Shown in pieces: positions 1 through 45,240 of a stretch of 64,000 bases of DNA. The position numbers and the translations under genes are program-made. Every line of letters begins with the position of its first letter. The stretch's first letter is position 1. The notes below the pieces were generated by a model. That model was not told the DNA's origin. It ran no database searches and saw nothing but the letters and a program-made list of their open reading frames with translations. The stretch lies in IMG/VR virus record IMGVR_UViG_3300042350_003801; one strand, 5' to 3'. The stretch is from a virus. Taxonomy: Duplodnaviria; Caudoviricetes.

Positions 1-615
1 ATTATTGCGAATAGAAGTATATTCTGAATTGGTTTCCCAGTCTGAAGGAACTGGGATATAATTTGTTGAGTCAAATTTGATAATATCACTTGGTTTGATA
101 GTATAGAGATATTTCCAAATATAACCATCGCCACTCTCGCCAGCCTTCCTTGGCTCTAAATCGGTAAAAGTTGGCTCATTTAAAGATGGACGACCGCTCG
201 GATTTTCGGGATCTGCACCGTTGAAAAGACAAATATAAACTTTGTAGTCTTGGTTTACGATAAAATAATTTGAAGAGTAAAGACTTGTTGCTCCCGAAGG
301 TTTTGATGTATTGCTTCTAGTAATATCGTGGCGGTACATATCGTAGGTTGTACCGGAAGCCCAGGTTGTTTTCTTAACAATTTGTTTAGCATTAGAGATA
401 GTCACCTTTTTCAGGGCAATCATCGTGTCCCAATAGTCATTTTCTTGATCAAAGCTGTCTTTAGGTGCTGGCGGTGAAGTATCCCAATCTGTTTGATAGT
501 CCGTGGCATTGGGCAACCCGATAAAAGTGTAGTATGTATCCGTGCCAGCCGTAACAGTTTCAACAAACTTTTTGGCTTGAAAAATTCTAAGTTGGTCTGT
601 AATTATCGCTGACAT
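1..615 (-). CDS. gp8: Baseplate wedge subunit gp8 (3' part lies outside the window)
   Basis: Not in the ORF track. Manual translation from ATG at 615 gives MSAIITDQLRIFQAKKFV...WDTMIALKK...GTTYDMYRHD...YKVYICLFNG...DGYIWKYLY, which matches cyanophage gp8; it follows gp7. Confidence 0.9.
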   Translation of the reverse strand, partial: MSAIITDQLRIFQAKKFVETVTAGTDTYYTFIGLPNATDYQTDWDTSPPAPKDSFDQENDYWDTMIALKKVTISNAKQIVKKTTWASGTTYDMYRHDITRSNTSKPSGATSLYSSNYFIVNQDYKVYICLFNGADPENPSGRPSLNEPTFTDLEPRKAGESGDGYIWKYLYTIKPSDIIKFDSTNYIPVPSDWETNSEYTSIRNN

Positions 616-633
616 ATTAAACTTTTTAGTTAT

Positions 634-3600
634 TTAGGTGTAATTTTTATATTTGAGCGGATTTACCCTTTTCACTATAGGGGATGTACTTATTCCAGTT
701 GTCCCATTATTATAAACTGTAAACTCATTTGAGGATGCTCTTTGGGGAACTGTGATTTTACCCCAACTATAAGTTCCGTAAATGCCAGTGAAACCGATAC
801 CGGTAATGCCATTGTTAGTAATGCTTACAGTAACTTTAGAAACTGAAGTTATACCTATGCCGGTCACAAATGTTTGAGCAATTGAAACATCTGCAACTCT
901 ATAAACATTATCTATGAAACTACTTCCAATTGAAATAATAGAGCTGGATTCATCTAAAGATGTGATTCCATTTCCAATGAAAGAATTATTCAGAACAAAA
1001 TAATAACCAGTCTGAATACCACTAATTGTAATAGCAGAACCGACAATACTGCTGTTTCTCAGTGCGGATTCTTGTGGTATGTAAAGATTGAATACCAAGC
1101 CAGTAGATGCAACTCCAACAGAAGTTGTAGCTATACCAGTAATTATCCCAAAATCCCCTTCAATTGTGCTCGCGGTTATGTTCTCAAAAGCACTAGAAGG
1201 ATTGCTAACCATTACTTGTGGCGGAAGTGATGCAGTATATCCTGCTCCCGGTGCAGTTACTGTTATCGCACTAATTGAACCGGATGTTATAGTTGCCGTT
1301 GCATACGCTCTGGAGGTAGTTGTTAAACCGATTGGAGTTGAAAAAGAAACCTCGGGGGAACTTGTATAACCTTTACCACCGTCTAGAATAGTAACAGACT
1401 GAATTGTGCCAGCAATAGAAACATTGGCGGTAGATATGGCAGGACGAATTTCGTCTTGTGTAATAATCTTAAATTTGTTTCTATAATCCGCTACGGAGTT
1501 CTCGCGCTGATCATCAAAGAATGTTCTAAGATTCTCAACAAAAATTACAGTAGAGGTAATACCAATTGTTTTAATGATATTAGTTGAAGGTTCAATAATT
1601 GGTTCATAAATTTCTCTATTTTTTGGAACTTCTTTTTGGTCAATGAATATGTCCTCGGTTTGTCTGCACCATTTTACCGGGCGGGTGTATGTTTCATCAC
1701 TTGAAACCCCTGGACCATTATAAGAAATAGTATTAACAGAATCTGAAGAATTGACGCTGGATACAACTCTTTCATTTTCTGAATACCCAAAATCGTCATT
1801 CAATTTAATAATATCCCCTGGTTTTATTGTATCTAAAACATCAACATCTATTACATCAACGGACCCCGTGCCCCGATAAAAAAGAACAACACAAGAATAG
1901 CCTTCTTTTGGTGCCTCAGTAAATGTGATGAAACTACTACCGGTAAATTTATAGCCTTCTCCTGGAATTTGAAGAATACCATTTACGAAGATTAAGAGTG
2001 TGGATTCAATATCAATTGGTGAACCGTAACGAGCCCTAATACTCTTAAGTTCATTATCAATTTTGACTGGGAATGATTTTCTTATTCCATTGAATAGATT
2101 TTCAATTGAATCAATAATTTGAAGTTCCCCGAATGTCCAACCGGCAAACTTATTATTGTAAATTTCATCAACAGATAATTTAAAAGTGCTATATGACGGC
2201 GAAGTAATAGTGGGAATACCAACTGTGCCGCCTAAACTTACAGTTAAAACGTCGCCTTTTTTATAACCAAATCCCCGATTTGTTACCTCAAGGTTAATAA
2301 CACTTGAACCTAAACCAACACTAACCTTAACTTTGCCTCCAGTTCCAACACCAGAAGATGGTGACATATATTGAAGAGGTAAATCTACATATGGAAGAGG
2401 GTCGTCAAATTTAACAATAGGCGGATTTGTTGAAGTATAACCAGTACCAGGATTCGTTATGGCAACAGAAACAACTTGACCATTTAAAATTGAGGCAATA
2501 CCAATATATTGAACTGTTGATATACCAGTAGTAGAAACATAAAGCCCGACATTTACAGACTGGAGACCCGACCTGTAGCCGGAACCATTATTTCCGATAC
2601 TAATTGATCCGATGGTTCCGGCAGTAGAAACAACTGCTGTTCCCCCCGCCGCTACAAGTGGTTGAAGGCCAAACCCCTGTGAATACCCCACGGCAACAAT
2701 AACTCCGCCAACAGGTAGCCCAGAGCCATTTACGTCATACGTCTGCGTTGCCGGGGCCCCTAGGAACCTAATAGAGGTGATTCCAAGTGTCTCCTCTAGA
2801 GCGTAACTTCCATAAGTTCTATATGAACCGGTAAAATCTGATGGTGATTGGAAAACTTCATTAATAAGTATTGCCCCGTTATTCTGAGAAAACCCGGCAA
2901 CATTTTGGAAATTAGATTTTATAGTAAAGGAAGAAGTTATTCCATTAAAGTTACTTGAGATATCATCAAATAAAAAGTTTGTTGAATAGGCATCAACATT
3001 GGAATTTTTTGCTCCACTTCGCATAAATACCCGACCATTGAAATTCAAAGTTGATGTAATCCCAACAAAGTCAACATCTTCGCCGGAACCAGTTGTAGTG
3101 CCGATTGGAGATGGACCTTTTGGTGGGTCAACAAAATGAATAGTGCTATCAATAATATTGTAATCACCTTGAACTTTATATACTATTGAATTTACAGAAT
3201 GAGTAGCAATTCCTGTGCCAGCCCACCCACGCTGAACGGAAACATCATTTGTTGTAGCAATGCCAACTGTTACTACTTTTATGATTTCACTGTCAATCTT
3301 TGCAAAATCACCACTGCTGAAGTTTGCAATACTTGAGAATGAAATAACTGTAGAGCCTATACCAACATAAGAAGAGGTTTTAGTGGAAGAGGCAGTTGAA
3401 ACAACCGGTGATTGTATAATGCCTCCTAATGAAATAAGTGCCCTAGTGTTCTGGGAAGTTGCAGTCAAAGTATGAGTCAGACCTGCTCCAACATTTGTCA
3501 AAACCAGAGGAACTGGAATATCTTTAAGAGCAGATTCTGCAGATGTTGAAAGACCAATGGTTGATTCGCTGTATTTTATTACATATACTGTTGAGGGGAG

Positions 3601-6600
3601 TTTATCTGTTGAACCAATTCCACTAATTGATGTAGTTTTGATACCAATTGGTAAAACATCATAAGAGTATGTAAGTTTTTCACCGTTTGTAAAAAAGTGA
3701 TTTTCTAACTGCAAGAAATTTGATGTTATATTTACTACAGTTGAACTGCTGCCAACAAAATTTCTATTGAAAATTGGATTGGTATTATATTTTAAGTCAA
3801 ATTGTCTAGTAATACCATCAAAACTTGGGCTAATATTATCAATAGTTAAAACCCTATTGCCAACTGTTTCCGCATAATCTTGAAGTATTTTATTACCAAA
3901 ATAAACTTGGTTTGAACCCAGGTTTGAATCTATTAGATAATTGTTTTCGGTAACAAGGTCATAATCTTCATTGCAATTTAAATCAACTTCGGAGTCGTTA
4001 AAAATTATGATACTAGTTAATGACTCGGTTTCGGAAGAACCGATTCCGATTAGGTCTTCAGATTCAACCACAAGGTCACTAAATTTCTTGAAGCCCGCAA
4101 TGTGATTTAGACCGCTAACCGCATTATCCCAAGTTTGATAATCAACTTTTGATTTTAACGAATATGCAAAAGAGTTATAATAATTATTGTCTTGAATCCT
4201 TTGAAACTCGTTATCGAGGAAACCCTTCTCAGTAATCCAACCCTTTTTAACTATGGAAGAAGACTTAATATTGTAGCGAGATTCAAAATCATATATCGCT
4301 GAAATCCTACCCCGAGAACGAGAATCTGAACCAACGATCATTAATCCCGATGTAAATTGATCTGTTGTGGATAATGTCAAGAGTTCATTATCACTATTCC
4401 AAAACTGCACAATTCCTTCTAGACCATCTGCCAATACAACTTCACCTATTAAAAATAAATTCTTAGAAAGTTCTGTGGTAAATTGCGGGAAGAACTTTTC
4501 CGGCACTACCGAACCAGAAGAAACTGTAGTATTGTAAACTCCAGGATATTCGGTGAAACTTAATTTGTTGGCAAGATTATATGTTATGGAGCCATTAGAG
4601 CCGCCGATATTTGGGTTAATGTTGGTAACAGTAAATCTGGAGTAATCATAAGAAGATGAATTATACCCCTTGGCCGAAGCATCGGTTACAATTGATACAC
4701 TTTCAACTAAAACTTTATCCCCAACGGCAAAGGGAAAATCTTCAATATTACTATAACTTGAAGTGAGGACTAGGGTGACATCTTTAGTCGTATCGTTGAA
4801 AGAAATTGAGTTAATACCAATTGCATTTGAGTTATTTGTTGGTATAATAATAGGCTGAACGTTATTAATACCTTTGCTGTTTTTAATAATTTGAACTTCA
4901 GAATCGCCAAGCTGATATCTTAAATCAACATCTGGAACTCGCTTTAAAGTTAGACCATCTAATAAGACTAAAGTTGGAGCAAAAATATAATTTTTTCCTG
5001 GTGAAATAATAGAAATTGTTTTTAATGAGGTCTGAGGAACAACTCTAAGAACTACTGGGGGTTGAGTTGATGGTGTAAGGGTTAAATCTGCCGGGTAATC
5101 AAATCCAATGTTATTATTATTAACTCTTTTTATTGCACCAATAGACCTACTAATTACCTCAAAAATTGCGTTCTTTCCTTGGTCGGTTATAACTGAACTA
5201 ATTCCCGGTAAGAATTTATAGTTGCTCCCACCTGAAGTAACTCGTATAGTGTTAATGGGACCGGTTGCGGTTTTAGATGTCGTAGTGTATGTTACGTTAT
5301 TGGTATAGCCGCCAACTTCTGGGATTGCACTGATAACATATGTAAATGCGGTTGAACCAACGCCGCTAATTGAATGCGTTCCAGAATACCCGCTATCAAC
5401 ATAATTGAGAGTATTATATTTTGTATTATTTTCTGTGTCAATAATAACTTGCTTATTTTTTATAGGAGTTAACTTATAATATAACTGATTTGGAAGAGTT
5501 TCATCATAGTTTAAAGTTACTAAAGCATTTAAATCTACACCGATAAGTCCAGATTTAATTACATTGAAATTGGTCCCATTAAAAGTAGTTTCAAATTTAT
5601 TGATAAACTGCTTATCACTGTAAAAATCAAAATCAAAAGCTGGAACTGATTGAAACCCTTCGGTTTCAGCCAAACTCTGGTCCGAAAGGTCAAAAACTGT
5701 GGAATTATTTTTTACAACAATTATGCTAGGATTCACTTCAGAAATTGTGCCATATGAAGCATTGGAAAGCGAAATAATATTTGGCACACTTAGAGTTGCA
5801 TCATAATACGAAGCAGATAAACTTATTGTATTAGAATTTAATACAACGACATAATAAATTGTATTATTACTTAATCCTGTAGTTGAAATTAATGAAGTGT
5901 GAAGAACCTTTTGTCCAGTAAAATAGTTATGACTAGGAATTTGGATTGTTTCATTTAATACATTAACATCAGCTCCAACAAAATCCCTCGGATTTGCGAG
6001 CAACCTTTGAGTGGGTTGATTATATACAATTTTGATGGTTTTTGTTGAATTTGGCGTGGCTGAAACGGTAACTAAATCACCAACACTAAGTTCTGAATTA
6101 GTGGCCGAGAAAATTGATACCAAATTCTTGTCTACTTGGCCAATAGATGAATTATATGAAGTTACAATACTATGTTTTTTACCTGTTCCATTAACATTAA
6201 AGTAAAGAATCTTTGCGGCACTCGTGGTATTATAGCCAACAAAGTTTCCAGTAGAACCAACCCCAACCTTTTCTGTGGATAACCCAACAAAATCATTTGA
6301 ATATTTAACGGCATAAACTGTAGTATTATCGCTCAATAAAGATGTGGTGATACCATTCGTTGATATGGTAATTTCAGTGCCACCATTTATTTTGTAGGTT
6401 AACTTTTCGCCAGTTTTTAGATTGTGTTCTGGAATGTAGATTGATTTTGTTGGAACGAAAACACTAGTGGGACCAACACCTGGACTAGAAAATGTTATCG
6501 TGCTCCCTGGGCCGATACCAATAGATTCGGATGGGTTAAAATAAAGTTCCCTATTGCGATAAGAATTGTTGAAGTCTTGAATCTCTGCATTAACAGAGAA

Positions 6601-9600
6601 TTTTCTTGGGACTTCCCTTATTGTTGCGCCAACAGTGTGATAAGTTCCGGCAGTGCCCCCATAGGCTCGCTCAACAAAAAGTCTTGATGATTGTTTATCA
6701 ATGTTTAGGACTTTTACCTTTTCGCTGTCAATTTGTAAAATATCATTTTCTCTGATATATGGAAAATCTAAGTTTCCGTATAGATTGATATAAGTTACAA
6801 TTCCAGTAATACCAGAGACATTAATATCCGTGTTTAATGTATACTTTTGACTTGAGACTGATGCCCTAAAAGATTTCTGTAAATTGAATTTATTGTAATT
6901 TAAATTTTTGACGGAGATGATATCCCCATTTTCAATGCTGTGGGGTAGACTACTAAACCCGATTACACCGTATGTTGAATTCGGGATAAACTCTACATTG
7001 AAAACTGTTGTTGAACCCACACTGATGCCATTAACTTCCTTTCCTTTAATGGAAGAAACTTCTGCTGATGCATTGATACCGCCTGAAGTTTTGCTATCAA
7101 AAATTAACTTATCTCTAACTTTATAACCGTTTCCTCCTGCTGGGATCAAAACATCTTCAACTGACCCAGTTAGGGTGCTGGTTACCGTAGAGGTTTGGTT
7201 ATATGTGCTAAATGGAGATAGAAGATATTTATAAAAACTACTTTCAGACTTTAACTTAAACGGACTTGTATTTCTTAGCCACCCGGTTTTATTTAAATCT
7301 AATGCATCTTGTTTTGAATAATAATCAAAGTTAAAGGAAATGGGTTTAGATTTATAGGATTCGCCGATAAGATAAGGAAACACTGGTTTAAAATAATTTT
7401 TAAACTGGCCAGTGCTTTCAACTCCTTGGTCTGAAATTGTGGCAAAATATGCATAAGTTCCATTGGGAAAATCTGGAGTGATGCAATACCTGCCATTATG
7501 TTCATCCAGGTCGCCAGAATTATTAAATTCATAGTCCTCAACAAAAATACCAGCAGGATAAAGTGATGCACTTGGGCGACCTCCCTTAAGTTCTAACCCA
7601 TAACTACTCTGTAGTATTTTTACTGCTCCAGATGTTTTGTATTCATAACCATAAGGACCGTAAATTGGATTCCCATCATAAGCCCATCCGATAATCGGAG
7701 AGTGTGAATCTGAAGTGGTTTCTCTATTAAAAGAATCTAGAATTAAGTCTGGACGATAGGTTAAATTATTTGATACATATTTGCTGCTTTGCAACATTTG
7801 CCGCAATTTTCTAGGAGCATACCCGTGAACATACTCCAAACCTAAATCTGAGCGAGTTCCCCTTGTTATGATACCATCATCAACTGTAATTTGATTAGTC
7901 TGTATTAAACGTTCAATCCAGTTAATATTCCAAGATTTTGTATTGGTTCTCAACTCTGCACTTGAACCCGCCGCAACTACGGTTAGTGTTATATTTTTTT
8001 GCTCATAACCATATCCCGGATTAATAATATTAACACTTTCCAATTCACCGTTGGTAATAATTGGAGTTAATACTGCACCATTACCGGTTCCACTAATTGT
8101 AATATCTGGGGGAGAATTATATCCTGAACCTGGATTAATAATAAGAACTTCGGCAATTTTTCCATTTGATATAATTGCTTGTATTATAGCATCTTTTCCG
8201 CTATTAATAATGATGTTTGGCTGGCGATTATAATTAATAATATCCTCTTGTCCATAATTTTGGCCGCCATCTTCCACAAAAACATTATTAATCTTTCCCC
8301 TGAAAATTGGCTGTATATTTATTTCTAAAATGCTCTCGGATGTTAATGTAACCTTAATCGGCTCGTAATTAAAAATATGTTGTCCAGAGCCGGATGAAGT
8401 GAAATCAATATATTGATGAGTCTTCAAATAAAAGTCTTTACTTGTTGATACCCCAACTGTCGCAACTTGTGAAAGTTTGAAGTTATTTTCATCAATTTCA
8501 GTGACATAATAAGAAATATTAGTTTGTATGCCGACAATTGGTGTTTGAGTGTAAGACTCATAAACGACAAGTTCTCCAGTTTTAAAACTATGCCCATTGA
8601 AATTAATGGCATCTGATGCAATATTAATTGCAGAAGAGTCAACAGAAATTCTACGATTTGTATAACCTTCACCTGGCTCAGTTATCGTAAAAGAAGAAAT
8701 CTTTGATTTTGCTTCATATGATACCAACTTGTGAATACCGAATCCCGTTACGCTAAGACTTATTGCATTTAAATTTGAAACTGAATCTTCATAAGTTTTA
8801 TATAGTTTAACCTCATTTAGGCTTACTGCCGAAATGTAGTATTCCGAATCTGTTGTAATTCCTGTTACATAAGAATAACCATCTGGGACGAATAGCACCT
8901 TTTCGTAATTAGAAAAACTGTGATAAGTTGCAAATCCAATGATATTACTAGAAATATTTCCAGTATTGAATGATGCAGAGTGTTCAAAAAGACCAACTTC
9001 GGGTTTTGCCTTTGCTCCCACACCGTTGCCGCCGGTTATCGTTATTGACGGTTCTCCTTTAACAATTAAATTTGAATTAAGCAGTCTAATCTCTTTAAGT
9101 TCCCCAACAATTTCTGGGGTTACTCTTGCCCCATAACCTTGCTCATCTGTAATTTGAATTAAAGGTGGATTAATAATATCATAATTATCACCAGGAGACA
9201 CTACATCAACAGATTCTATTGGTCCATAAAAAACAGAATTTTGGGACTTATAATTTAAAATTTCAACACCATTTAAAAGAATACCAGTGTTGCCAATTGG
9301 TGTTGGCTCAATAATCTTTCTATCTAACGGCTGTGAAATCTTCCTAATTAACTTTTGATTAGTTAAAATTTTACCGGCAAAATCATTGTGTTCTAAAGTA
9401 TTATTAGTTACCGTGCCAGAAACAGATAAATAGATTCCGGCCCGGAGATTGGACCGACTGGTTGCCAATGAAAAAGAGTTATTGTCTACTTTTTTAATAT
9501 AATAAGTTCCCTTCGATATGCCCAGATTACTAGTAGAAGGATAGTCATATAAAACAACATCACCCGATAAAAAGCCGTGATTTGTATAATTTAAAATTTC

Positions 9601-23062: not shown

Positions 23063-25079
<2,017 letters not shown>

Positions 25080-25190
25080 ATTTGAAAAAGGGTAGAAAAT
25101 GTTCGTAGGGACGAACGTGATTAATATTTCTTCTCGCCCTTAGAGAAGATATGAGAGACGTATTTGACGTGCAAAGTCTCGGTAAGCACG
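25080..25190 (-). ncRNA. PhotoRC-II-like structured psbA 5' leader
   Basis: GCTTACCGAGAC...AAATACGTCTCTCATATC..AAGGG...GAAATA...CGTCCCTACG...ACCCTTTTTCAAATATG resembles, from memory, the cyanophage psbA leader motif (GAGAC/GTCTC stem). Confidence 0.7.
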
Positions 25191-25224
25191 GGCAGCAATG
25201 TGAGGATTTCCTGACTTGCTGATG

Positions 25225-27504: not shown

Positions 27505-27713
27505 CTATTATGGATCATTTTTGGTGAAATGGCCGTTTGAGTGGACAGTTTTTATATTGGCCCTTTTTGGCGGAATTTTTTGGGCGGGAAATTTTTTTGA
27601 GAGCAGGGGGTGTCTTAAGCCATATGGGACCCAATGGTTTTTATTATAAAACGCACTTGGGGGGGGTATGGGTATCTTATCGCTAGGCCACACCGGGGCA
27701 CCGCCGGGACGGT

Positions 27714-27756
27714 AGTATATCTGTCCCATAAGAACCACTGATGGGACAGATATACT
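27714..27756. repeat. Perfect 16-bp inverted repeat
   Basis: AGTATATCTGTCCCAT-aagaaccactg-ATGGGACAGATATACT. Confidence 0.9.
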
Positions 27757-27823
27757 GCTCACAAACCCCAGCAAGACTGGCCCCAATAAGATATACAAAT
27801 CAGGGCCAACTGCTAATCATACT

Positions 27824-28504: not shown

Positions 28505-28672
28505 CGATAAGCATTGCTAATGGTTGAGGACTTGACAGGCTGGGCTGGTTCTGTTATTGTAGCTTCATACAAGGAAACCAGCGCAAGAAGCGCATCATAT
28601 AAGCGGACACAATAAACCTGCTCGTTAATAATAGCATCTAAAATATAAAGAAAGGCCCGCGATTGCGAGCCA
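28505..28672 (+). repeat. Divergent-promoter/sRNA cassette, copy 1
   Basis: ATAAGCATTGCTAAT palindrome, TTGACA-N17-TATTGT, TTCATACAAG, GCGC-AAGAA-GCGC, CACAATAAACCTG, terminator hairpin. Confidence 0.85.
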
Positions 28673-28697
28673 TTTGTTATTCTTATCGGTCAACTCT

Positions 28698-30224
28698 TTA
28701 AGATAACTTAGCCGGTACATTGACCATGGTTAGGTGTTGCTTAGCACGGGTGACTTGCACATAGCAGAGATGATCTTCTTGTGCAAGTTCCCATTCTTTC
28801 TTTGCAAACTTGCTAGGAGAATAGAGATCCATCCCTAGACAGAATACGCGATCCCATTCTCTACCCTTTGCCTTATGGATTGTGCTGAGAGTTAATACTT
28901 TCTGCTGGCCAGCTTCAGTATCACCAAACAGGCTACGAATCTTGCCGACAAGTACACTAACATCATCTTCATCGTCGCATTGTGTCATAAACACCTCTAA
29001 AGTTTTAGCCTTATCGTCTACATTCTGTGCCTTTGTATTATCTTCCTTGGAGATAAACTTCTCAATCTCATTCGCGGCCCATTGCTCCACTTTAGATCTT
29101 AATTTTCCCACGGTTTTGATAGACTTCCATCGCGTAGTAAGTGCAATTAAACCCTCGCCAATCTTGCGTCCTTCAACTTTACAAGCTACCCCTCCTCTCA
29201 ATAGAGAATATGCAAGCGAAACTAGCGGTTTTGTATTACGACAAAGGATAGCATCTTGCCTCCCAGTAAGTTTAACAACCTCGGTCAATTCACAGGCATC
29301 CACTATACCATCGGGAGCAGATTCGTGTGCTTCAATATGATCCACCCACTGATTCGCAACCTGAACTATAGCCTTAGGGCAACGATAAGTCACAGTTAAG
29401 GGTAGAGTTTCCGCATTAAACTCTGACCGAATGTTATCTAATGCAGCAGAATCTGCACCAGTAAAACCATAAATTGCCTGGCAAGGATCGCCCACAGCGA
29501 ATAGCCTACCTGATGGATTTAGCATCATTTTAACTAATGCCCGGCGCGTTGCATTAGTGTCTTGAGCTTCATCCAACAAAATGTTATCATATTGCCAAAT
29601 CTTCATCTTATTAAGAATAGGCATATAGATCATATCTGAAAAGTCTACAATATGAGTAAGAGAATTGCTCACCTTTAGTAAATACTGGGCGGCATCAATT
29701 CCCTGTGACTCGGTTATACCATCTGGCAGAGAATCTAACAAGTTATGATGATCTAGCATTGTCATCCAATTATCTACATTATCTTCAACGATTGCAGCAA
29801 TTCCGCATTCTTTGGCCATACCTGCAGCCGTTGTAACGAATTGGCGCAAAGGTTCATGTTCACCATTAAACTCACGGCGGGCTAATTCTCTTAGTTTGTT
29901 ACCATCCACCTTGACGCGACTTACAGCCCTACGAATAGCACCGAATCCGAAAGAATGCAGAGTGCCAACCTTAACCCTATCACCCAGATTAAGGGGTGCA
30001 ATCTTATCAGCAATCTCTAGGCTAATTGCCTTGTTAAATGCACAGAATGCAACTGATCCCTTAGTTGCATTAACCATCTCAACTAATGTTGTAGTCTTGC
30101 CTGCTCCTGCTACCGCTTCCAGCACAAGATTAGCCCTGGAAGATGTAACAAACTGAACGGCGGCAGCTTGCTGTGTGGAGAGTTGACGGGCCATGGCAGG
30201 GAGAATCCCTAAGTGCTCCGACAT
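28698..30224 (-). CDS. UvrD/Rep-family SF1 helicase
   Basis: AVAGAGKTTT, LLDEAQD, VGDPCQAIYGFTGA, TYRCP, TIHKAKGREW, YVQVTRAK. Confidence 0.92.
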   Translation of the reverse strand: MSEHLGILPAMARQLSTQQAAAVQFVTSSRANLVLEAVAGAGKTTTLVEMVNATKGSVAFCAFNKAISLEIADKIAPLNLGDRVKVGTLHSFGFGAIRRAVSRVKVDGNKLRELARREFNGEHEPLRQFVTTAAGMAKECGIAAIVEDNVDNWMTMLDHHNLLDSLPDGITESQGIDAAQYLLKVSNSLTHIVDFSDMIYMPILNKMKIWQYDNILLDEAQDTNATRRALVKMMLNPSGRLFAVGDPCQAIYGFTGADSAALDNIRSEFNAETLPLTVTYRCPKAIVQVANQWVDHIEAHESAPDGIVDACELTEVVKLTGRQDAILCRNTKPLVSLAYSLLRGGVACKVEGRKIGEGLIALTTRWKSIKTVGKLRSKVEQWAANEIEKFISKEDNTKAQNVDDKAKTLEVFMTQCDDEDDVSVLVGKIRSLFGDTEAGQQKVLTLSTIHKAKGREWDRVFCLGMDLYSPSKFAKKEWELAQEDHLCYVQVTRAKQHLTMVNVPAKLS

Positions 30225-30557
30225 CCTACCACACTTTCTGCCACGGATGGCCAGCCTGTCAGATAATCCTAACCGATATAATAAAGAGCAGGTTTATTGT
30301 GGCCGTTTATATGATGCGCTTCTTGCGCTGGTTTGCTTTGTTGTTCATATTCTACAGCCTTATGCGCCGGTTTCTGGTTGGTGTGTGCCAGTGGTTAAAG
30401 TGTCATCAGAGGCACCCAGAAGCCCTTAGAAGGTGCTACAATACAGTGAGACAAGCAAAGACAGCGGGCGAGCCGCATTTATATAAATTGGCACAATAAA
30501 CCAGCCTTGAGATAATAAGATATAAATAAAGGCCCGCAATCGCGAGCCCATTGGTTA

Positions 30558-30989
30558 TCAGTAAACCGTTTCAATGTCGGCACATTGAAGGATACCAGAC
30601 GGTTCAAGTCTGATAGAATCGCCATAATCAGACTTGATGCACCGAATGTTACTCCAACCCAGTTCATATTTCACCGCCCGAATGATAGCAAGATCCGTTT
30701 TCTTGCCGAGAATAGGCACCTCAAACCTCCTATCGATAGTGTTCACTTCACCACCAAATAGGCCATAAACAGTAACCCCAACCGATGGCACTTGTTCATA
30801 GCTGATACTATCAACACAATAATTGGCATAATCTGTTACTGCCTCCACTATATCATCCTCCCTATCAACAATGAATACCTTATTGCTAAACCTTTTATTA
30901 TAGTCTGCGGTTTCTTCTTGAGTGAGTTCTTCATCTTCACAGTCGGTGCTAAAGTCAAACTCAACTTTGGTGATTCTGTAAGCTGGCAT
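30558..30989 (-). CDS. Hypothetical protein
   Basis: ORF track; consensus sigma70 promoter upstream. Confidence 0.7.
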   Translation of the reverse strand: MPAYRITKVEFDFSTDCEDEELTQEETADYNKRFSNKVFIVDREDDIVEAVTDYANYCVDSISYEQVPSVGVTVYGLFGGEVNTIDRRFEVPILGKKTDLAIIRAVKYELGWSNIRCIKSDYGDSIRLEPSGILQCADIETVY

Positions 30990-31037
30990 TGGTCTGAATC
31001 TGAACGTCCCACTAACAATAAACTGTTTTCGTCAGTA

Positions 31038-31225
31038 TGTCAATGGTTGATTGATAAGCATTACTGATCATTCAAGGGCTTGACATACTGGGTTGATTCT
31101 GTTATTGTATGTTCATACAAGGAAAACCAGCGGAAGAACCGCTACAAATAAGAAGCCACAATGATCCTGCCTTTCATTATTAGAATATAAACAATACAAA
31201 AAGACTTCCGAGTTGGAAGCCTTTA
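31038..31225 (+). repeat. Divergent-promoter/sRNA cassette, copy 2
   Basis: Back-to-back TTGACA..TATTGT on both strands; GCGG-AAGAA-CCGC. Confidence 0.85.
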
Positions 31226-31602
31226 TTATACCGACTTATCGGGCATCGGTAATAACAACCGGCATCGGTTTCTGCGGCCGTTTGATCTCAGCGCCGGGGC
31301 GATAGACTGGCCGCAGTGTAGTAGACGGACGGACAGGGCGAGGAGCCAGAGTAGGAGCAGTCATCGGAGGTTGAGCGGTTGACTCCATAATCTTACAGCA
31401 TGAACCGCCAGACCGTCAACCAATCGGGGGCCATTGGTCAGAGAATGCTCACACTAGGATGGTTTCATAGATTATCGGTGATTCTATCCCATCCTACCTG
31501 CCCACCAGAATACCACAAAAACCAAAAATATAATAAACCCGCAGACATTAAAAAGGCCAGGGATATTAACTCCCTGGCGCCGGTTATACTGGAGCCCCGT
31601 AA

Positions 31603-32166
31603 TCACTCCGGGAATTGTGAAGAATAAGAAGGAACTATGCTCACTTTCATGCAATGTTCAAACGGAATATCACCTTCCATAGGATTAAACACATACCATT
31701 TATGTTCCCTCTGGAATAACTGACAACCGCAATAACGCATCAGGATTCTATTCATTCGCTCTTTAGTTGAGCGGCTCCTTTTAATAGGATCGTATAGAGT
31801 TACTCTTCCTAATACAGGAGCATAAAGGGCAATGAGTTTGCCATGATGCATAAAATGGATCAGCTCAAAGATGGAACCTACATCCGTAGCCTTAATTTCA
31901 TCGTTATTTTTCTTGTAGTTGACATGATTCTCAGCATGGAATAGCATCGTCTTAATACAATCAGCCCCGCCGCGATCGTTTACAAAATCCTGGCGTTCTT
32001 GCCAGTGCTTGAACTTAAGAAGTGCTTCGTAATACTCTGTGTAACATATGCGCTCGGCGCCTTCTTTATTTAACCGAGTGTAACCAGCCGTGCGGACTTT
32101 ATCCGATTTAGTATAATGAAATGCCTTGTGGTGCGCTAGAAGAGTAGAACCCGTGAGGCGTTGCAT
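31603..32166 (-). CDS. Hypothetical protein; C-terminal part resembles ORF 36678
   Basis: HG..IA.....T....STK.R.N.IL...Q....WY pattern shared; start moved to MQRLTG. Confidence 0.65.
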   Translation of the reverse strand: MQRLTGSTLLAHHKAFHYTKSDKVRTAGYTRLNKEGAERICYTEYYEALLKFKHWQERQDFVNDRGGADCIKTMLFHAENHVNYKKNNDEIKATDVGSIFELIHFMHHGKLIALYAPVLGRVTLYDPIKRSRSTKERMNRILMRYCGCQLFQREHKWYVFNPMEGDIPFEHCMKVSIVPSYSSQFPE

Positions 32167-32242
32167 TTGCTTACCGGCAACCTGCCGGTGGTTGGTTGAC
32201 TTGCTTATCCTACAGCATCGGGAAGGGTTCTGATCGTTTCCA

Positions 32243-32410
32243 TTGATAAGCACTACTAATGGGTCAAGGGGTTGACAGACGGGGTTGAATGGGTTATTAT
32301 AGTTTCATACAAGGCAACCGGCGCAAGAAGCGCATAATATAAGCGGCCACAATAATCCTGACTTTTAATAAAAGGATATAAAGAAAGGGCCGCAGATTGC
32401 GAACCCATTT
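32243..32410 (+). repeat. Divergent-promoter/sRNA cassette, copy 3
   Basis: Same elements; GCGC-AAGAA-GCGC. Confidence 0.85.
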
Positions 32411-32413
32411 GTA

Positions 32414-32800
32414 TCAGACGAGAATTCCTCCATTATTTCTAATTTCCTCAGTGAACATACTAACCAAATCTTTATCCTGCTGAATCTCTTCTTTTGTCTT
32501 GAAGTTGAAGAGAGAATCAAAGAGTTTCGCTACTTTGATAGCATCGGAAAGGTGAATAAACTGTGCAGCAGAGAATCCAGTGGCGAGATGAGTAAGTCTC
32601 CAGCGAAAACGTACAGGGGTTTCTTTGGTTGCAGGGCCGTCATCTTCAAGATCGCGGCGATAAACCATGCTGGCATGAACTGCTGTGTTCTTGCCTTTCC
32701 AGCGAACTTGAATAGGCCGATCATACAATCTTTCACCGGTGTCTTTATTCATCATGCCGATAAGAATGGAAGCCATGGAGCCGATTGTTTGAGTACCCAT
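32414..32800 (-). CDS. Hypothetical protein
   Basis: ORF track. Confidence 0.65.
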   Translation of the reverse strand: MGTQTIGSMASILIGMMNKDTGERLYDRPIQVRWKGKNTAVHASMVYRRDLEDDGPATKETPVRFRWRLTHLATGFSAAQFIHLSDAIKVAKLFDSLFNFKTKEEIQQDKDLVSMFTEEIRNNGGILV

Positions 32801-33006
32801 TAAGAATACAGCATTTTTGGTGCCGTGCTCTTATTGTGTGCCACCTTAAAAACCGTCCACCGAGCCTGTCTTACTGGCTTGTGGTCTGCTATACTGATTA
32901 CATCGGGCGCAAGAAGCGCAATAAACAAAAGGCCACAATAAACCTGCCCTTTAATACTGTACAAAGAATAAAGAAAGGGGGAGGATTGCTCCCTCCCCGG
33001 TTATAC

Positions 33007-33390
33007 TCAGTCTGCAATCATCGGACATTTAATACCTTCCCACGCCCTTGAATAGTTATCAATAACCTCGTCAATAAGAGATTCTAGCTTAGGGTGATAA
33101 GTGTAATTACAAACAATCTCTTCCGGTTCATTGCCGAGAACAATCCACAATCTAGCTCGCATTCCGTCTTTGTTAATGTAGACTGTGGCCGCATCCACTG
33201 AAACTATAATATCTGAAGCAGAATGGCGGATTTTTGTATTAGATTGCTCTTGGTCAATCTTGATAGTTTCCTCACCATCATTTACAGCAGTGATAGTGAA
33301 TCCTTCCTGTTGAAACTTGGCAAGAAGAGACCTAACGGGAACCGACCAATTAAAAGCCGTTTGGAAAGGTTTTAATTCGTGGCTAGCCAT
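33007..33390 (-). CDS. Hypothetical protein (AVNDGEE...WIVLGNEPEE motif)
   Basis: ORF track; start moved to MASHEL. Confidence 0.65.
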   Translation of the reverse strand: MASHELKPFQTAFNWSVPVRSLLAKFQQEGFTITAVNDGEETIKIDQEQSNTKIRHSASDIIVSVDAATVYINKDGMRARLWIVLGNEPEEIVCNYTYHPKLESLIDEVIDNYSRAWEGIKCPMIAD

Positions 33391-33446
33391 GATGCAATTC
33401 CTTGAAGACTCCTTAAGAATACCAGAATTGAGAGACAGGGATCTTA

Positions 33447-33476
33447 GTGTGTGCCAGTTCAACAACTGGCACACAC
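33447..33476. promoter_or_regulatory. Perfect copy of the recurrent early-promoter palindrome
   Basis: GTGTGTGCCAGTT-caac-AACTGGCACACAC; about 20 imperfect copies lie between 30 and 62 kb. Confidence 0.75.
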
Positions 33477-33545
33477 AGCCTGCTTTTGGTGCTTACATAA
33501 ATAATACCAAAAAACCTTTAATAAGGATGTGATTTATTATTCCTA

Positions 33546-33773
33546 TCAATAATAAAGAGATGTAGTTTTTGTTATAGGTTTAGCCCTTAAAAGCGACTCA
33601 CCTTTAATCAGTCTCCAAGCCACATATTTGCGCTTCCTACATTCTTCCTCCGCCAGCTTCTCTTGATTGAAACGACTGTTTCTGCCGTCAAGTCTAATAA
33701 CTGAACGATCACCACATGCTGGTGCTAATTCTCCCGTTAGATTAACTTGGAAAAACTCTGCATAAGTGGCCAT
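33546..33773 (-). CDS. Hypothetical protein (CGDRSVIRLDGR motif)
   Basis: ORF track; start moved to MATYAEF. Confidence 0.65.
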   Translation of the reverse strand: MATYAEFFQVNLTGELAPACGDRSVIRLDGRNSRFNQEKLAEEECRKRKYVAWRLIKGESLLRAKPITKTTSLYY

Positions 33774-34028
33774 TGGTCTGTGGAGCGGTTGACCTTCATA
33801 CAATAGCACCGGGAAGCCCGACCCGTAAAGCATCTGTCAGCGATTGCCCACACTTGAGCGGAAACTCTTTTTATCGTAGATTCTGGCGGAACCGATGGGC
33901 TATCCTACCCTTGCCACCAGAATACGAAAAAACCGAAAGTATAATAAACCGATGGCCATTCTTAATTACAATAAAAAGAGCCAGAGGGATTCTTATACCC
34001 CCCGGCCCGTTATACTATCGGTTGGGTA

Positions 34029-34718
34029 TCACCGAGCACTGCACAATACACGAGTTTGGCTACCTGATGTTTGACGATGTAGACTTGCATTTGCTCCAGC
34101 ATTGGAGCCTAATTGAGCGGCAATTCCACTAGGCTGAGATGTACGATGGGTGCGAAGTTTAAGGCGAGCGATCACTACTGCAGTGTGTTCCTTATCGGGA
34201 TGATCCGCACGATTGAGTTTCATTTCATACAACCGATCTCGCACCTTGGCTGCGTATTGTTTACAGAAATTGGATCGGAATCCGTAGGCATTATAGGAAT
34301 TACCCATCAATTCGGCTAATACCTTCTCACCAGCAATTGCAGTCTCACACTCCCGGATCATACAACCCTTCAGGAAATCGTAGTATAAACGAACCTGAAT
34401 CTGTTGCGCCTCTGTGCCAATACACTTAAGAGTTGTAACCTTCCTTCCAGTTTGATGGCTAGGGCTGGACATACCGAGAGCATCATAAAACCGGGCGATT
34501 GCACAAAAAAGAATAAGATGCGATTCGTCAAGTTTCTTATAAGTCTCAAACGCTTCAGTAAGAACCTCAGGTGTATTGACATCATCAATTGTTACACCGT
34601 GTTGTTTACACAGTTTATCAATAAGTGTGGCGGCAGCATTAGCCTCGCCATCAAAACCTGTTGATTCTTGCAGCCTGAGCATGGCTGAAATTTTCTTAAG
34701 GATGGCTTGACGATCCAT
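34029..34718 (-). CDS. DUF2786-like protein
   Basis: MDRQAILKKISAMLRLQES..FDGEANAAA.LIDKL...HGV N-terminal pattern. Confidence 0.7.
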   Translation of the reverse strand: MDRQAILKKISAMLRLQESTGFDGEANAAATLIDKLCKQHGVTIDDVNTPEVLTEAFETYKKLDESHLILFCAIARFYDALGMSSPSHQTGRKVTTLKCIGTEAQQIQVRLYYDFLKGCMIRECETAIAGEKVLAELMGNSYNAYGFRSNFCKQYAAKVRDRLYEMKLNRADHPDKEHTAVVIARLKLRTHRTSQPSGIAAQLGSNAGANASLHRQTSGSQTRVLCSAR

Positions 34719-34782
34719 TGATCTGTGGAGCGGTTGACCTTCATACAATAACAGATTAGGAGCCCTTTGGAAGGGTTTCATT

Positions 34783-34955
34783 GATTAGCAATGCTTATTG
34801 TTCTAAGGCTTGACATAGTGGGCTGGTTCTGTTATTGTAGCTTCATACAAGGAAACCAGCGGAAGAACCGCGACAGACAAAGTGCCACAATAAACCTGCT
34901 TCTTAATAAAAGAGTATAAAGAATAAAGAAAGGGGAAAGATTATTCCCTCCCCGA
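34783..34955 (+). repeat. Divergent-promoter/sRNA cassette, copy 4
   Basis: Same elements; GCGG-AAGAA-CCGC. Confidence 0.85.
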
Positions 34956-34982
34956 TAAGTATGAGAATCGTTTTAGTATTGC

Positions 34983-35216
34983 TTATGCATACCAGTTTGC
35001 GGCAATTTCCTTTGCATTGTCACCAAGAAAAATATGGACAGCACGATTAGGTGCTCTACCGAGAATTTGACAACAGCGTTTCAATTCGTCTCCATCCGCT
35101 TGCACCCGGACGTAGGCTGCATAAGCCATATTGACGGTTGATGCTAAACCATTGTCGCCAGTGTGGCCGCTTACAGTATAATTTGAATGGCTGGCACATG
35201 CAGTAAAGAAAATCAT
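34983..35216 (-). CDS. Hypothetical protein
   Basis: ORF track; start uncertain. Confidence 0.5.
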   Translation of the reverse strand: MIFFTACASHSNYTVSGHTGDNGLASTVNMAYAAYVRVQADGDELKRCCQILGRAPNRAVHIFLGDNAKEIAANWYA

Positions 35217-35267
35217 TGAAGGGAAGCGATTGGGTTGGAAAGGAAACAGGGAAACCTTTTGTTGTAA

Positions 35268-35489
35268 TCAATAGGCGTGAAATACCTCTAGGATCTTATC
35301 GTTTTGAACAATCTTGGCATGAGGATAGAATACCCATTTTGAACCAACATTGTTGATTGCATCATAAGCATCCTCTAATGTTTCGTGAACACTATCTCTG
35401 ACTTCTTCATCATCGTCATTGAAAAAGTAAACAATTAGATCATCTTCGGAAATTAAATTGGCGGGTCTTTTGTTAAAAAAGGGGAACAT
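35268..35489 (-). CDS. Hypothetical protein
   Basis: ORF track. Confidence 0.6.
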   Translation of the reverse strand: MFPFFNKRPANLISEDDLIVYFFNDDDEEVRDSVHETLEDAYDAINNVGSKWVFYPHAKIVQNDKILEVFHAY

Positions 35490-35561
35490 TGGATGTCTGG
35501 GGGGTGACTAATGAATAATAGGGCACCTAGAGAGGCTTCTAGGTGCCTCTGGTGCCAATTA

Positions 35562-35897
35562 TTAAGCTGGCACGCTAGCCCTTGACTTCAGGAATGTTAA
35601 TGCTTTATCAACATCTTCTCTTACCCACTTAGGAAGATTTTTATACTGCACAAACGCGATAATCTCATTATGAATCATCATACAACAGTCTGCATAACAA
35701 TTACCCGTTTTGCCTTTCATTTGATTAATTCCATCTAAAGTTATTGCCGCCTGTAGATTCCAGAAGAATCCTGAAACACTATTGGCCATTTTTTCACTTC
35801 CCGTCCCTTTAAGACCAAGACGATTGGCTAGCCATCTTCCCCTATTTGTGGAAAAATGTTCTGTGAACGGAATTCCACCAGGAAAGGGATTGTTCAT
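35562..35897 (-). CDS. Hypothetical protein
   Basis: ORF track; consensus promoter upstream. Confidence 0.65.
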   Translation of the reverse strand: MNNPFPGGIPFTEHFSTNRGRWLANRLGLKGTGSEKMANSVSGFFWNLQAAITLDGINQMKGKTGNCYADCCMMIHNEIIAFVQYKNLPKWVREDVDKALTFLKSRASVPA

Positions 35898-35945
35898 CTG
35901 CTGAAACCTGAACTACAAACATAGAATAAACTGTTTTCTTCTCGT

Positions 35946-36135
35946 TGTCAATGGTTGATTGATAAGCATTACTAATGGGTCGGGGGCTTGACATACTGGC
36001 CGGGATGGGTTATTATAGTTTCATACAAGAGAAGAAGAAGCGCAAGAAGCGCATCATATAAGCGGCCACAATAAACCTGCCCTTTAATACTGTACAAAGA
36101 ATAAAGAAAGGGGGAGGATTGCTCCCTCCCCGATT
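35946..36135 (+). repeat. Divergent-promoter/sRNA cassette, copy 5
   Basis: Back-to-back TTGACA promoters; GCGC-AAGAA-GCGC; 3' part nearly identical to 32905-33005. Confidence 0.85.
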
Positions 36136-36139
36136 ATAC

Positions 36140-36334
36140 TCAGTCTTTCATAAGATCGTCTACATTTAATTCCAATCCTTCCCCTATAATTTTGAGTGTA
36201 AGTTCCTCCATCTGTTGATGGGTGAAAACTTCATTTTTATCCATAGGATTTACCCAACCAAGTTTTGTTGGATCTGATAACTTTTCCTTAAGAAGATTGA
36301 GCAAAAAGATTCCTTCCTGGTCTGTGAGTTTCAT
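36140..36334 (-). CDS. Hypothetical protein
   Basis: ORF track. Confidence 0.55.
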   Translation of the reverse strand: MKLTDQEGIFLLNLLKEKLSDPTKLGWVNPMDKNEVFTHQQMEELTLKIIGEGLELNVDDLMKD

Positions 36335-36340
36335 TTTGGT

Positions 36341-36604
36341 TTAGATGGATTGAAAAATGCGGAAACCATAATCACGAAGAAGCACTCTCCCGACAACATT
36401 ATTAATGGCATCTGAGAGTGCTTCTTCGTCTGTATATTGTTCAGAGTAACCATTCAAAGTTATTTCTTGATAGCCTGGAACTTCGAGGTGAATTGTTCTA
36501 CTTTCCCCCACCAACTTTATCTCACATAAGGCAGAAATAATCTCTGCCATTGTGCCGATCGCGCTAATCGTAGAATCCCGATTAACTATACAGTACTCTT
36601 TCAT
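36341..36604 (-). CDS. Hypothetical protein
   Basis: ORF track. Confidence 0.6.
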   Translation of the reverse strand: MKEYCIVNRDSTISAIGTMAEIISALCEIKLVGESRTIHLEVPGYQEITLNGYSEQYTDEEALSDAINNVVGRVLLRDYGFRIFQSI

Positions 36605-36677
36605 TTTCAGCTCAGAAAGGTGGGTGACTTGTATAGAATACCCGTTTATCGGGTGAAGCGGTTAAAGTGTGTGTCAG

Positions 36678-37025
36678 TTAAACAACTGGCATATTATCTT
36701 CAAACTCTCCTTTATCACAATACCATACATAATCCTTCTGGAAGATTCCCCCCAGATTGTAATGATGTAGGATAGAGTTGAGGCGCGATTTGGTAGTCTG
36801 TGTCTCCCATCCACAGGAAGAAAGAATCATCTTATTGCCAGGAAAGATGCTGGCAATCTTATGGCCGTGAAGTTTAACTTGAATCTCCCTTGAAGTAGAA
36901 GAAATTCCGCCACTCACATTGAAATACTCACCACGATGTATGATCTCAAAGGAGGTGTTATCTTTCCGCCAATCGGTCTCATTTGAGATGGCGCGAATCA
37001 TCTGTTGCTCAATGATGCGGGACAT
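36678..37025 (-). CDS. Hypothetical protein (IEQQM..A...W.KDNT...LHGHKIA...GW.T.TTKSRLN)
   Basis: ORF track; start moved to MSRIIEQQ. Confidence 0.7.
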   Translation of the reverse strand: MSRIIEQQMIRAISNETDWRKDNTSFEIIHRGEYFNVSGGISSTSREIQVKLHGHKIASIFPGNKMILSSCGWETQTTKSRLNSILHHYNLGGIFQKDYVWYCDKGEFEDNMPVV

Positions 37026-37260
37026 TGCGGTTGGAGCTGCTGACTTGTATAGAATACCAGGATTAAAGCCTTGTGCTCTTATTGTGTGCCAGTTGTTGAA
37101 CCGTCCACCTGGCCGGTTAAACCGTCTTAATTCGTGCCATACTGTATTCATTGGGCGGAAGAACCGCGACAGACAAAGAGCCACAACAAACCTACCGTTT
37201 TATAGTCATATAAATAATACCAAAAAACCTCCAATAAGGAGGCTGTTGGTTATACTTAAC

Positions 37261-37973: not shown

Positions 37974-38382
37974 CAGTGGTTGGAGCGGTTTACTCCTTAA
38001 GAATACCAGAATCTGTGGCCTGTGGGGAGCCGGTGTGCCAGTTTGTTGGCTGGCTGGGAGTTCTTTATACTTTGTGTTTTTTCGGTGATTTTTCTTGTGC
38101 GTTTGGTGCAGGGTTGTTGATCGTTTTATAGAAGGCGGGCCAAGTCCACTAAGACCAGCCACACGAGAACGGATTTTAATAAGAAGAAATGACTATAAAC
38201 AGTTTACAATAAGACTGGCCAACATAAAATGACTTTTAATAAGATACACCAACTAAGAATGGTTCTCAATAAGATACTTTTGGATACTATCCAAAAACAC
38301 CATAAAAAACAATAATAAACGATTAAACAATAAAAAATGACCATTTTTAGTGGTCATTTTAGTTAAGTTTGGGGTTAAGGAT

Positions 38383-45143: not shown

Positions 45144-45240
45144 TTAAATGGGGGGGGGTGTCAAATAAAGAATAGCAGGCCAGACAGAATTTGTCAAGCC
45201 TGCAATGATAAGCAGTTCTTATGCTCGCTCAGAATTTAAA

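Follow-up and report, generated by a model that had tools for sequence, protein, structure and literature searches.

Described here is a repeated intergenic cassette of a T4-like cyanophage, located at positions 28,505 to 37,205 of a 64,000-nucleotide (nt) stretch of viral DNA (IMG/VR record IMGVR_UViG_3300042350_003801; Duplodnaviria, Caudoviricetes), which is referred to as the window. Comparison with related phages gives good support to the view that the cassette carries a multi-copy, promoter-driven and folded non-coding transcript running against the gene flow. This support derives from compensatory pairs in the stem, from G-U pairs in positions where A-C never occurs, from a hairpin that is never located 5' of the expected start site, and from promoter swaps that keep the core. 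A transcribed, folded RNA, whatever its function, is very probable. Judged from the sequences, the element is real, clade-restricted, undescribed, multi-copy and non-coding, with strong structural evidence. More specifically, it is tentatively read as a variant of the promoter-early stem-loop (PeSL) cassettes of T4-type phages that carries an undescribed early RNA of about 110 nt, which would act as a diffusible ligand of a protein. An initial annotation of the window had proposed a multi-copy small RNA of 100-130 nt; the promoter-driven, folded, non-coding unit is borne out by the comparison, while the 3' end is less defined than that length implies.

The unit follows a constant order of promoter, A-rich leader, hairpin, A-rich linker, CAC...CCTGC motif, AT-rich tract and terminator of the converging gene. 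Nine copies are present in the window. The earlier total of eight was too low, as a copy at 30464-30505 with the stem GCGG/CCGC and the loop GCGAG had been overlooked. The five copies described as full were recovered as exact TTGACA-N17-TATT(G/A)T-N3-TTCATACAAG units at 28532, 31080, 32272, 34810 and 35988, and the hairpin with a CACAA..CCT core was found at +28581, -30328, +31130, +32321, +32907, +34859, +36040 and +37155. Neither pattern occurred in shuffled sequence (0 in 100 shuffles for the promoter units), although these patterns were derived from the window copies themselves, and the shuffles show only that the repeats are not compositional. Two copies described as partial and one as inverted do exist, but they are not partial, as they contain full RNA cores behind their own -10 boxes and lack the TTGACA promoter alone. 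The sequence CCACAATAAACCTG of the initial annotation is present in exact form in just four of the nine copies. No conserved open reading frame was found behind the rightward promoters, in agreement with the initial annotation. The converging terminators are likewise confirmed: minus-strand terminators come after the plus-strand copies, and eight of the nine window copies face one. The copies and the features between them are as follows.

28581..28621, plus strand: RNA core of copy 1, with GCGC/GCGC hairpin, linker and CAC..CCTGC; predicted transcript about 28567-28680
28654..28671, minus strand: terminator of the converging helicase gene and probable 3' hairpin of RNA copy 1
28698..30194, minus strand: gene of a UvrD-like superfamily 1 (SF1) helicase between copy 1 and inverted copy 2, a dispensable neighbour that is missing from the complete genome G001
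30288..30328, minus strand: copy 2, inverted RNA core, with a TAGAAT -10 box at 30354-30349
30437..30505, plus strand: copy 3, with a TACAAT -10 box (30437), GCGG-GCGAG-CCGC hairpin and CAC..CCAGC; 57 bits
30530..30549, minus strand: terminator past copy 3
31080..31170, plus strand: copy 4, promoter 31080-31108 and GCGG/CCGC core 31130-31170
31200..31224, minus strand: terminator past copy 4
32272..32361, plus strand: copy 5, promoter 32272-32300 and GCGC/GCGC core 32321-32361
32390..32402, minus strand: terminator past copy 5
32890..32947, plus strand: copy 6 (formerly partial), TATACT -10 box at 32890, short leader and full core 32907-32947
32978..32998, minus strand: terminator past copy 6
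34810..34899, plus strand: copy 7, promoter 34810-34838 and GCGG/CCGC core 34859-34899
34932..34953, minus strand: terminator past copy 7
35988..36080, plus strand: copy 8, promoter 35988-36016 and GCGC/GCGC core 36040-36080
36111..36131, minus strand: terminator past copy 8
37138..37195, plus strand: copy 9 (formerly partial), CATACT -10 box at 37138, short leader and full core 37155-37195
37226..37244, minus strand: terminator past copy 9

The hairpin consists of 4-6 base pairs (bp) across the family, 4 bp in the window copies, and has a purine-rich loop. In the predicted transcripts of the window, eight copies have a hairpin pair probability of 0.9-1.0, and the remaining one has 0.33. The variation between GCGC/GCGC and GCGG/CCGC stems is compensatory, as had been stated, with the strongest covariation at the inner pair. 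In a first-round set, which was seeded on perfect stems, the stem was present in 59 of 59 copies (inner pair C-G 33, G-C 25, A-U 1; outer pair G-C 34, A-U 21, G-U 4). Because of this bias, an independent test was run without it. A metagenome pattern containing only the 3' arm and the downstream motif yielded 58 distinct matches, all of which had four of four Watson-Crick pairs, compared with 18% of shuffled arms. Across 140 copies of fixed geometry, the inner pair is C-G in 70, G-C in 67, U-A in two and A-U in one, and the outer pair is G-C in 88, A-U in 43, G-U in nine and A-C in none. As G-U is seen but A-C never is, the fold is placed on the sense strand, which argues against a double-stranded palindrome or a terminator of the gene strand. 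Pair counts from model alignments, which lean toward the model, were 91% and 100% paired; the covariation score was reached in none of 500 shuffles, and slid registers collapse. Wholly different stems that still pair are found at the same place in cultured Synechococcus phage B3 and in S-SRM01, among others. A small intrinsic terminator on the gene strand was also considered and rejected, since at least five T follow in just 66 of 161 copies and the wobble pairs can form only on the other strand. Beyond the 4-bp stem, RNAalifold and mutual information revealed no second stem or pseudoknot, and pairing of the loop with CCUG fails for the AAGAA loops of the window. A stem of 4 bp fits RNA better than DNA coated with single-stranded DNA-binding protein.

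The covariation bears directly on the suggestion, made in the initial annotation, of a protein-bound site in double-stranded DNA, which is now disfavoured for the hairpin. Such a duplex site, or an inert passenger carried along each time a gene is gained by PeSL-type recombination, would account for the mosaic copies, which show low linkage and have blocks in common within the window, as cassette recombination predicts. The half-sites of a DNA palindrome would, however, vary independently, and mixed arms were not seen. A single genome can contain different stems, so simple homogenisation does not explain the copies, and an inert passenger would decay, whereas the hairpin is kept in 161 of 164 copies. 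Both forms of this explanation are already largely refuted by the covariation and are regarded as extremely improbable.

The -10 box and the stem are separated by at least 7 and at most 52 nt; this lower limit corresponds to the expected start site, so that the hairpin always falls within the transcript. The spacing between the stem and CCTGC is 23-25 nt in 159 of 161 copies, in a search that permitted 20-27 nt and resolved ties toward 24. The linker contains near-invariant A positions and ends in CAC-N4-6-CCTGC, and the roughly 30 nt located 3' of this motif are 87% A+T. A CAAG tetramer in the linker, 12 nt before CCTG, accompanies 37 of 45 five-nt loops and one of 74 four-nt loops. The association holds separately for three stem types, in a comparison that excluded the subfamily of the window itself (AAGAA loops, 23-nt linker). 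This coupling suggests a tertiary or protein-imposed geometry. Apart from its one small hairpin, the RNA would be largely unpaired, and the set distance between this hairpin and the single invariant motif would give it the layout of a protein-binding RNA. Long-leader copies in related phages (L004 3339-, L005 5417-, L006 15971-, L075 7837+, L078, L122 6561+, and B3 at L049 ~15190+) contain Shine-Dalgarno-like purines together with a minigene of the form ATG/TTG-X-Val/Ala-stop, whose end lies 15 nt 5' of the hairpin; this minigene occurs in no window copy. A conserved minigene after the hairpin (ATN-AYA-YAA triplets) was rejected, as an ATG start is present in just 49 of 164 copies.

The promoters vary while the core persists. 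The palindrome reported initially was found as ATWAGCA-H-TRCTDAT at 28507, 31054, 32246, 34784 (reversed) and 35962, and the same motif lies between divergent promoters in the relatives L004-L009 and B3. It is probably an operator or activator site. Two more degenerate 15-bp palindromes occur without an RNA core at 45208-45222 and 34972-34986. The leftward promoter that had been ascribed to each full copy has a consensus -35 box in two of five (31043 and 35951); the other three have a -10 box only. In a second promoter class, comprising copies 2, 3, 6 and 9, the -10 boxes are TAGAAT, TACAAT, TATACT and CATACT, and a GTGCCAG-N8-CTGGCAC box replaces TTGACA. Copy 3 stands back-to-back with inverted copy 2 across such a box, which is probably an activator site. 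About 20 copies of the box are spread over window positions 30385-62211, mostly some 30 nt 5' of early -10 boxes, and it occurs in all related phages. As at least two promoter classes drive one core, the transcript rather than the promoter appears to be the conserved entity, and this was the first sign of it. The promoter elements are located as follows.

28507..28521, no strand: 15-bp palindrome of copy 1, between divergent promoters
28532..28560, plus strand: sigma70-type promoter of RNA copy 1, TTGACA-17-TATTGT
30385..30406, no strand: GTGCCAG-N8-CTGGCAC-type box common to the back-to-back promoters of copies 2 and 3
31015..31068, minus strand: leftward TTGACA-17-TATTGT promoter (31043-31015) with palindrome (31054-31068)
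32246..32260, no strand: palindrome of copy 5, with leftward -10 box TAGGAT at 32212-32207
34784..34798, no strand: palindrome of copy 7, reversed, with leftward -10 box TATTGT at 34750-34745
35923..35976, minus strand: leftward TTGACA-17-TATTCT promoter (35951-35923) with palindrome (35962-35976)

The orientation of the copies towards terminators also suits a local role as an insulator. A polymerase fired at the converging terminator would pause or collide there, so that single-gene units under strong transcription would terminate more sharply, and the next promoter, like the late genes further downstream, would be shielded. The early array ends with this cluster, beyond which lie gp25/gp6/gp7; every copy has been maintained on its own, and the sister phage L007 retains the promoters without the hairpin. 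PeSL stem-loops have been proposed to block early spill-over into late genes (PMC2839356). An insulator nevertheless leaves the invariant CAC..CCTGC, the fixed 24-nt spacing and the coupling of loop and linker unexplained, and copies immediately 5' of the helicase gene run with that gene and lack a converging terminator. Moreover, pause and terminator hairpins usually lie about 8-11 nt from the RNA 3' end. This role is considered improbable.

The search in other cyanophages suggested by the initial annotation was productive. Relatives were found via the helicase and DNA patterns in nine IMG/VR contigs, some of which are near-identical, and 64 metagenome contigs, giving 164 distinct copies after de-duplication, including the nine of the window. 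The carriers are lake and estuary cyanobacterial viruses with 7-12 copies each. Phage B3 contains seven copies at the same genomic position, directly before gp25/gp6/gp7, and S-SRM01 has two diverged copies that were matched by descriptor and missed by the covariance model. No copy was found in the fetched regions 5' of gp25 in S-PM2, S-B05, DSL-LC02 and S-SM2. A search of 185,579 prokaryote genomes gave no match with a pattern that suits the commoner subfamily rather than that of the window, and a relaxed pattern for the window subfamily gave only single unrelated matches and no close relative of its variant. No Rfam 15 family reached its gathering threshold in the region, the best sub-threshold hit being RsmY with 25.9 bits against a cut-off of 57. 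No published description of the element was found in a search whose scope left out most subscription journals.

The proposed mechanism for the preferred RNA reading starts from an intergenic cassette made up of a PeSL-type terminator and an early promoter, into which a small non-coding gene would have been built on the opposite strand. Straight after infection, the host RNA polymerase would transcribe an RNA of about 100-120 nt from each copy, terminating at or near the terminator hairpin of the converging gene. The hairpin and CAC..CCUGC at a fixed distance may form a two-point binding site for one protein, which the RNA would titrate or redirect. The 7-12 separately promoted copies could supply a large early dose from a single incoming genome. 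That so many early promoters are given over to a non-coding product suggests that it acts as soon as infection begins. A decoy RNA would imply an uncharacterised host or phage protein in picocyanobacteria, possibly a defence factor.

Several observations weigh against this early, diffusible RNA. The analysis identified neither a partner protein nor a target, nor any known sponge motif. In the two complete genomes, all copies are located in one cluster of 6-7 kb at the downstream end of the early array, and the near-universal intactness of the hairpin suits a local cis role as well as dosage. In L007, at 190-8740 on the minus strand, about ten opposing promoters are followed by a shorter, hairpin-less motif with ACCT(G/A) and a T run, which may be either a reduced RNA or a different one. 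A U-tract of at least five T occurs on the sense strand in 51 of 121 copies, compared with 95 of 121 on the gene strand, so the 3' end of the RNA may be ragged. Finally, the copies are related, and the pair counts given above are numbers of sequences that overstate independent events; the four inner-pair states, the G-U intermediate and more than ten unrelated stems indicate that many events were needed.

PeSL cassettes are known from the T4-type phages RB49/phi1, PST and nt-1 (PMC2839356, PMC4122927). Like the present units, they recur between the genes of a hyperplastic early region. Each combines a G/C stem-loop terminator with an AT-rich tract and a sigma70-type promoter that serves the next single gene, and the copies between variable genes are mosaic; the mosaicism and low linkage seen here are compatible with cassette recombination. 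The initial link to PeSL module shuffling thus holds for the backbone. The units described here repeat the stem-loop terminator and the sigma70-like early promoter of the next gene, with a consensus -35 box on just two of five leftward promoters. What sets them apart from PeSL is that each unit also contains a promoter in the opposing direction, a palindrome resembling an operator, and a folded, non-coding core that is conserved. These elements intervene where PeSL cassettes have an AT-rich region directly 5' of the -35 box of the gene promoter, and the AT-rich tract is situated about 100 nt or more from that box. The available text of PMC2839356 contains neither 'antisense' nor 'cyanophage', and the available passages of PMC4122927 describe no second promoter. 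Because of these additional elements, which separate the terminator from the gene promoter, the cassette is classed as a PeSL variant and not as a plain member. It would extend the PeSL idea, as the unit that shuffles would be carrying a gene of its own.

Dose-dependent action is known for other small non-coding RNAs present in several copies, among them phage decoy RNAs such as the pseudo-ToxI of phage TE and RNA anti-CRISPRs, the Csr/Rsm sponges, and NsiR1 of Nostoc, which is multi-copy with a promoter per copy. The proposed RNA would resemble them in this respect, its dose action being part of the proposal. The initial annotation had suggested a protein sponge or an antitoxin mimic; a sponge remains plausible, whereas mimicry of Csr/Rsm, ToxI or CRISPR repeats failed when tested. 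A sponge of the CsrB/RsmY type was rejected, as each RNA has one hairpin and the window loops are AAGAA or GCGAG without GGA, AGGA loops being a small minority of the family. A type III antitoxin mimic or RNA anti-CRISPR was also rejected, with no tandem array in the units and no likeness to ToxI or CRISPR repeats. Rfam gave no match to the ToxI, CRISPR-repeat or NsiR1 models, and ToxI and CRISPR repeats were unlisted at E up to 10 in this comparison with Rfam models. Further likenesses that were considered and dropped, none of which is kept across subfamilies, were boxA/boxB antitermination, the anti-Shine-Dalgarno sequence, the XerD arm of dif, sigma54 -24/-12 elements, the MotA box, the PriA assembly site, the preQ1 tail and the T4 gp43 operator.

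A different view is that the cluster serves as a transcription-activated platform for DNA processing, in which the promoters would open the DNA and expose the hairpin and an oriT-like CCTG^C that primes replication or is nicked. This is thought rather unlikely. If true, T4-like cyanophages, for which no description of origins was found, would possess an origin defined by sequence, or a system for excising modules, without a described counterpart in this group.

As a replication system, the cluster would be a bank of origins of the T4 oriF/oriG/oriE type. The R-loop of an early transcript in the AT-rich tract 3' of CCTGC would prime the leading strand, with the hairpin and the CCTG motif acting on the nascent RNA or the displaced DNA strand in helicase or primase loading. 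In T4, an origin consists of a promoter with an A+T-rich unwinding element no more than about 100 bp away; in oriE, an early promoter stands beside a direct-repeat array (PMC3016281). The same layout is found here, with promoters, the A+T-rich 30 nt after the motif, a purine-rich sense strand with GGG in 36 of 59 copies, and every copy in one locus. An AT-rich repeat array also adjoins the cluster in the window (38219-38337), in L006 and in B3. It is part of an AT-rich direct-repeat stretch at window positions 38148-38360, with a 30-nt period at 38219-38277 and a 10-nt period at 38294-38337. Such an array, however, occupies the same place in S-PM2, whose syntenic region lacks the element. T4 origins have no local motif in common, and their unwinding element can be exchanged (PMC3016281); they are spread round the genome, in contrast to the clustered 7-12 units with a conserved core described here. 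G001, which is complete and has eight copies, lacks the SF1 helicase, as do 15 of the 17 unbiased loci that span at least 6 kb. In G001 the GC skew tracks the coding strand without a switch at the cluster, which is uninformative rather than negative. A skew or strand switch is true of three T4 origins and not of all. An origin function is judged unlikely; if the units are origins, the replication initiation site of T4-like cyanophages would be located.

The nicking variant compares the core with an oriT or T-DNA border. Transcription would expose the sense strand, on which the hairpin folds 5' of CCTG^C for an HUH endonuclease, and cleavage would drive excision and shuffling of single-gene modules or rolling-circle initiation. 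The units have in common with the MOBP oriT of RP4 and the T-DNA border a CAC(C/T)TA(T/C)CCTGC core that is preceded on its own strand by a hairpin (PMC3772185, PMC4814116). In relaxase sites, too, the nick lies 3' of a same-strand hairpin, at a distance of 8 nt (PMC4814116). The RP4 nick 12-mer (PMC3772185) scores 19.4 bits on the family matrix, compared with a median of 19.2 for true copies (p 3.6e-7 per site, post hoc after many motifs), and the window copies resemble the reverse complement of a T-DNA left-border primer (PMC5816537). Yet about 28 nt separate the hairpin from the presumed nick, the column linkage is unbroken there, and the units always stand behind a promoter. The MOBP consensus YATCCTGY is present in only a quarter of the copies (42 of 164) and in none of the nine in the window. 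Relaxase, Rep_1, Phage_GPA and Mob_Pre were absent at cut-off from two complete and three partial genomes, other HUH families and host relaxases not having been searched, and no protein common to G001 and B3 has an HUH motif. A nick site is considered very improbable. The presence of the family in cultured B3 and B23 and, in diverged form, in S-SRM01 makes the RNA and origin readings testable in existing phage-host pairs.

The source of the window is a T4-like cyanophage of the Kyanoviridae, as the best matches of its gp25 are Kyanoviridae Synechococcus phages and an intron-split psbA is present. This psbA, at 23063-25203, is interrupted by four group I introns and is accompanied by a PhotoRC-II leader. 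Among cultured phages, DNA similarity to the flagged region is confined to B3 and B23. The region is a minus-strand series of single, mostly unannotated genes with gaps of 150-300 nt; the annotated ones encode Kyano_Gp96, DUF2786 and the UvrD-like helicase. The apparent linkage of helicase and element is an artefact, because the helicase had served as bait for finding relatives. The Kyano_Gp96 domain (31603-32184, minus strand) sits behind a fused N-terminal segment like the small conserved cluster-edge protein of G001, L006 and B3, which has no Pfam call and which we take to be AbrB-like. The fusion protein is a candidate binder of the palindrome or the GTGCCAG-N8-CTGGCAC box.

In two gaps within the cluster, at window positions 31500-31580 and 33915-34005, a distinct though related motif (CCACCAGAATAC with an A-rich tract and a terminator) occurs without the hairpin core or an opposing consensus promoter. 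At the left border of the cluster (27564-27760), GGCGG(G)AATTTTTT repeats occur together with a G run and an inverted repeat of 13 bp. The syntenic boundary of L006, B3 and S-PM2 has similar repeats, accompanied in L006 and B3 by a non-coding TTGACA promoter. The syntenic cluster of S-SRM01 (L050, 35600-41000) contains many TCTCGTCGAGA palindromes.

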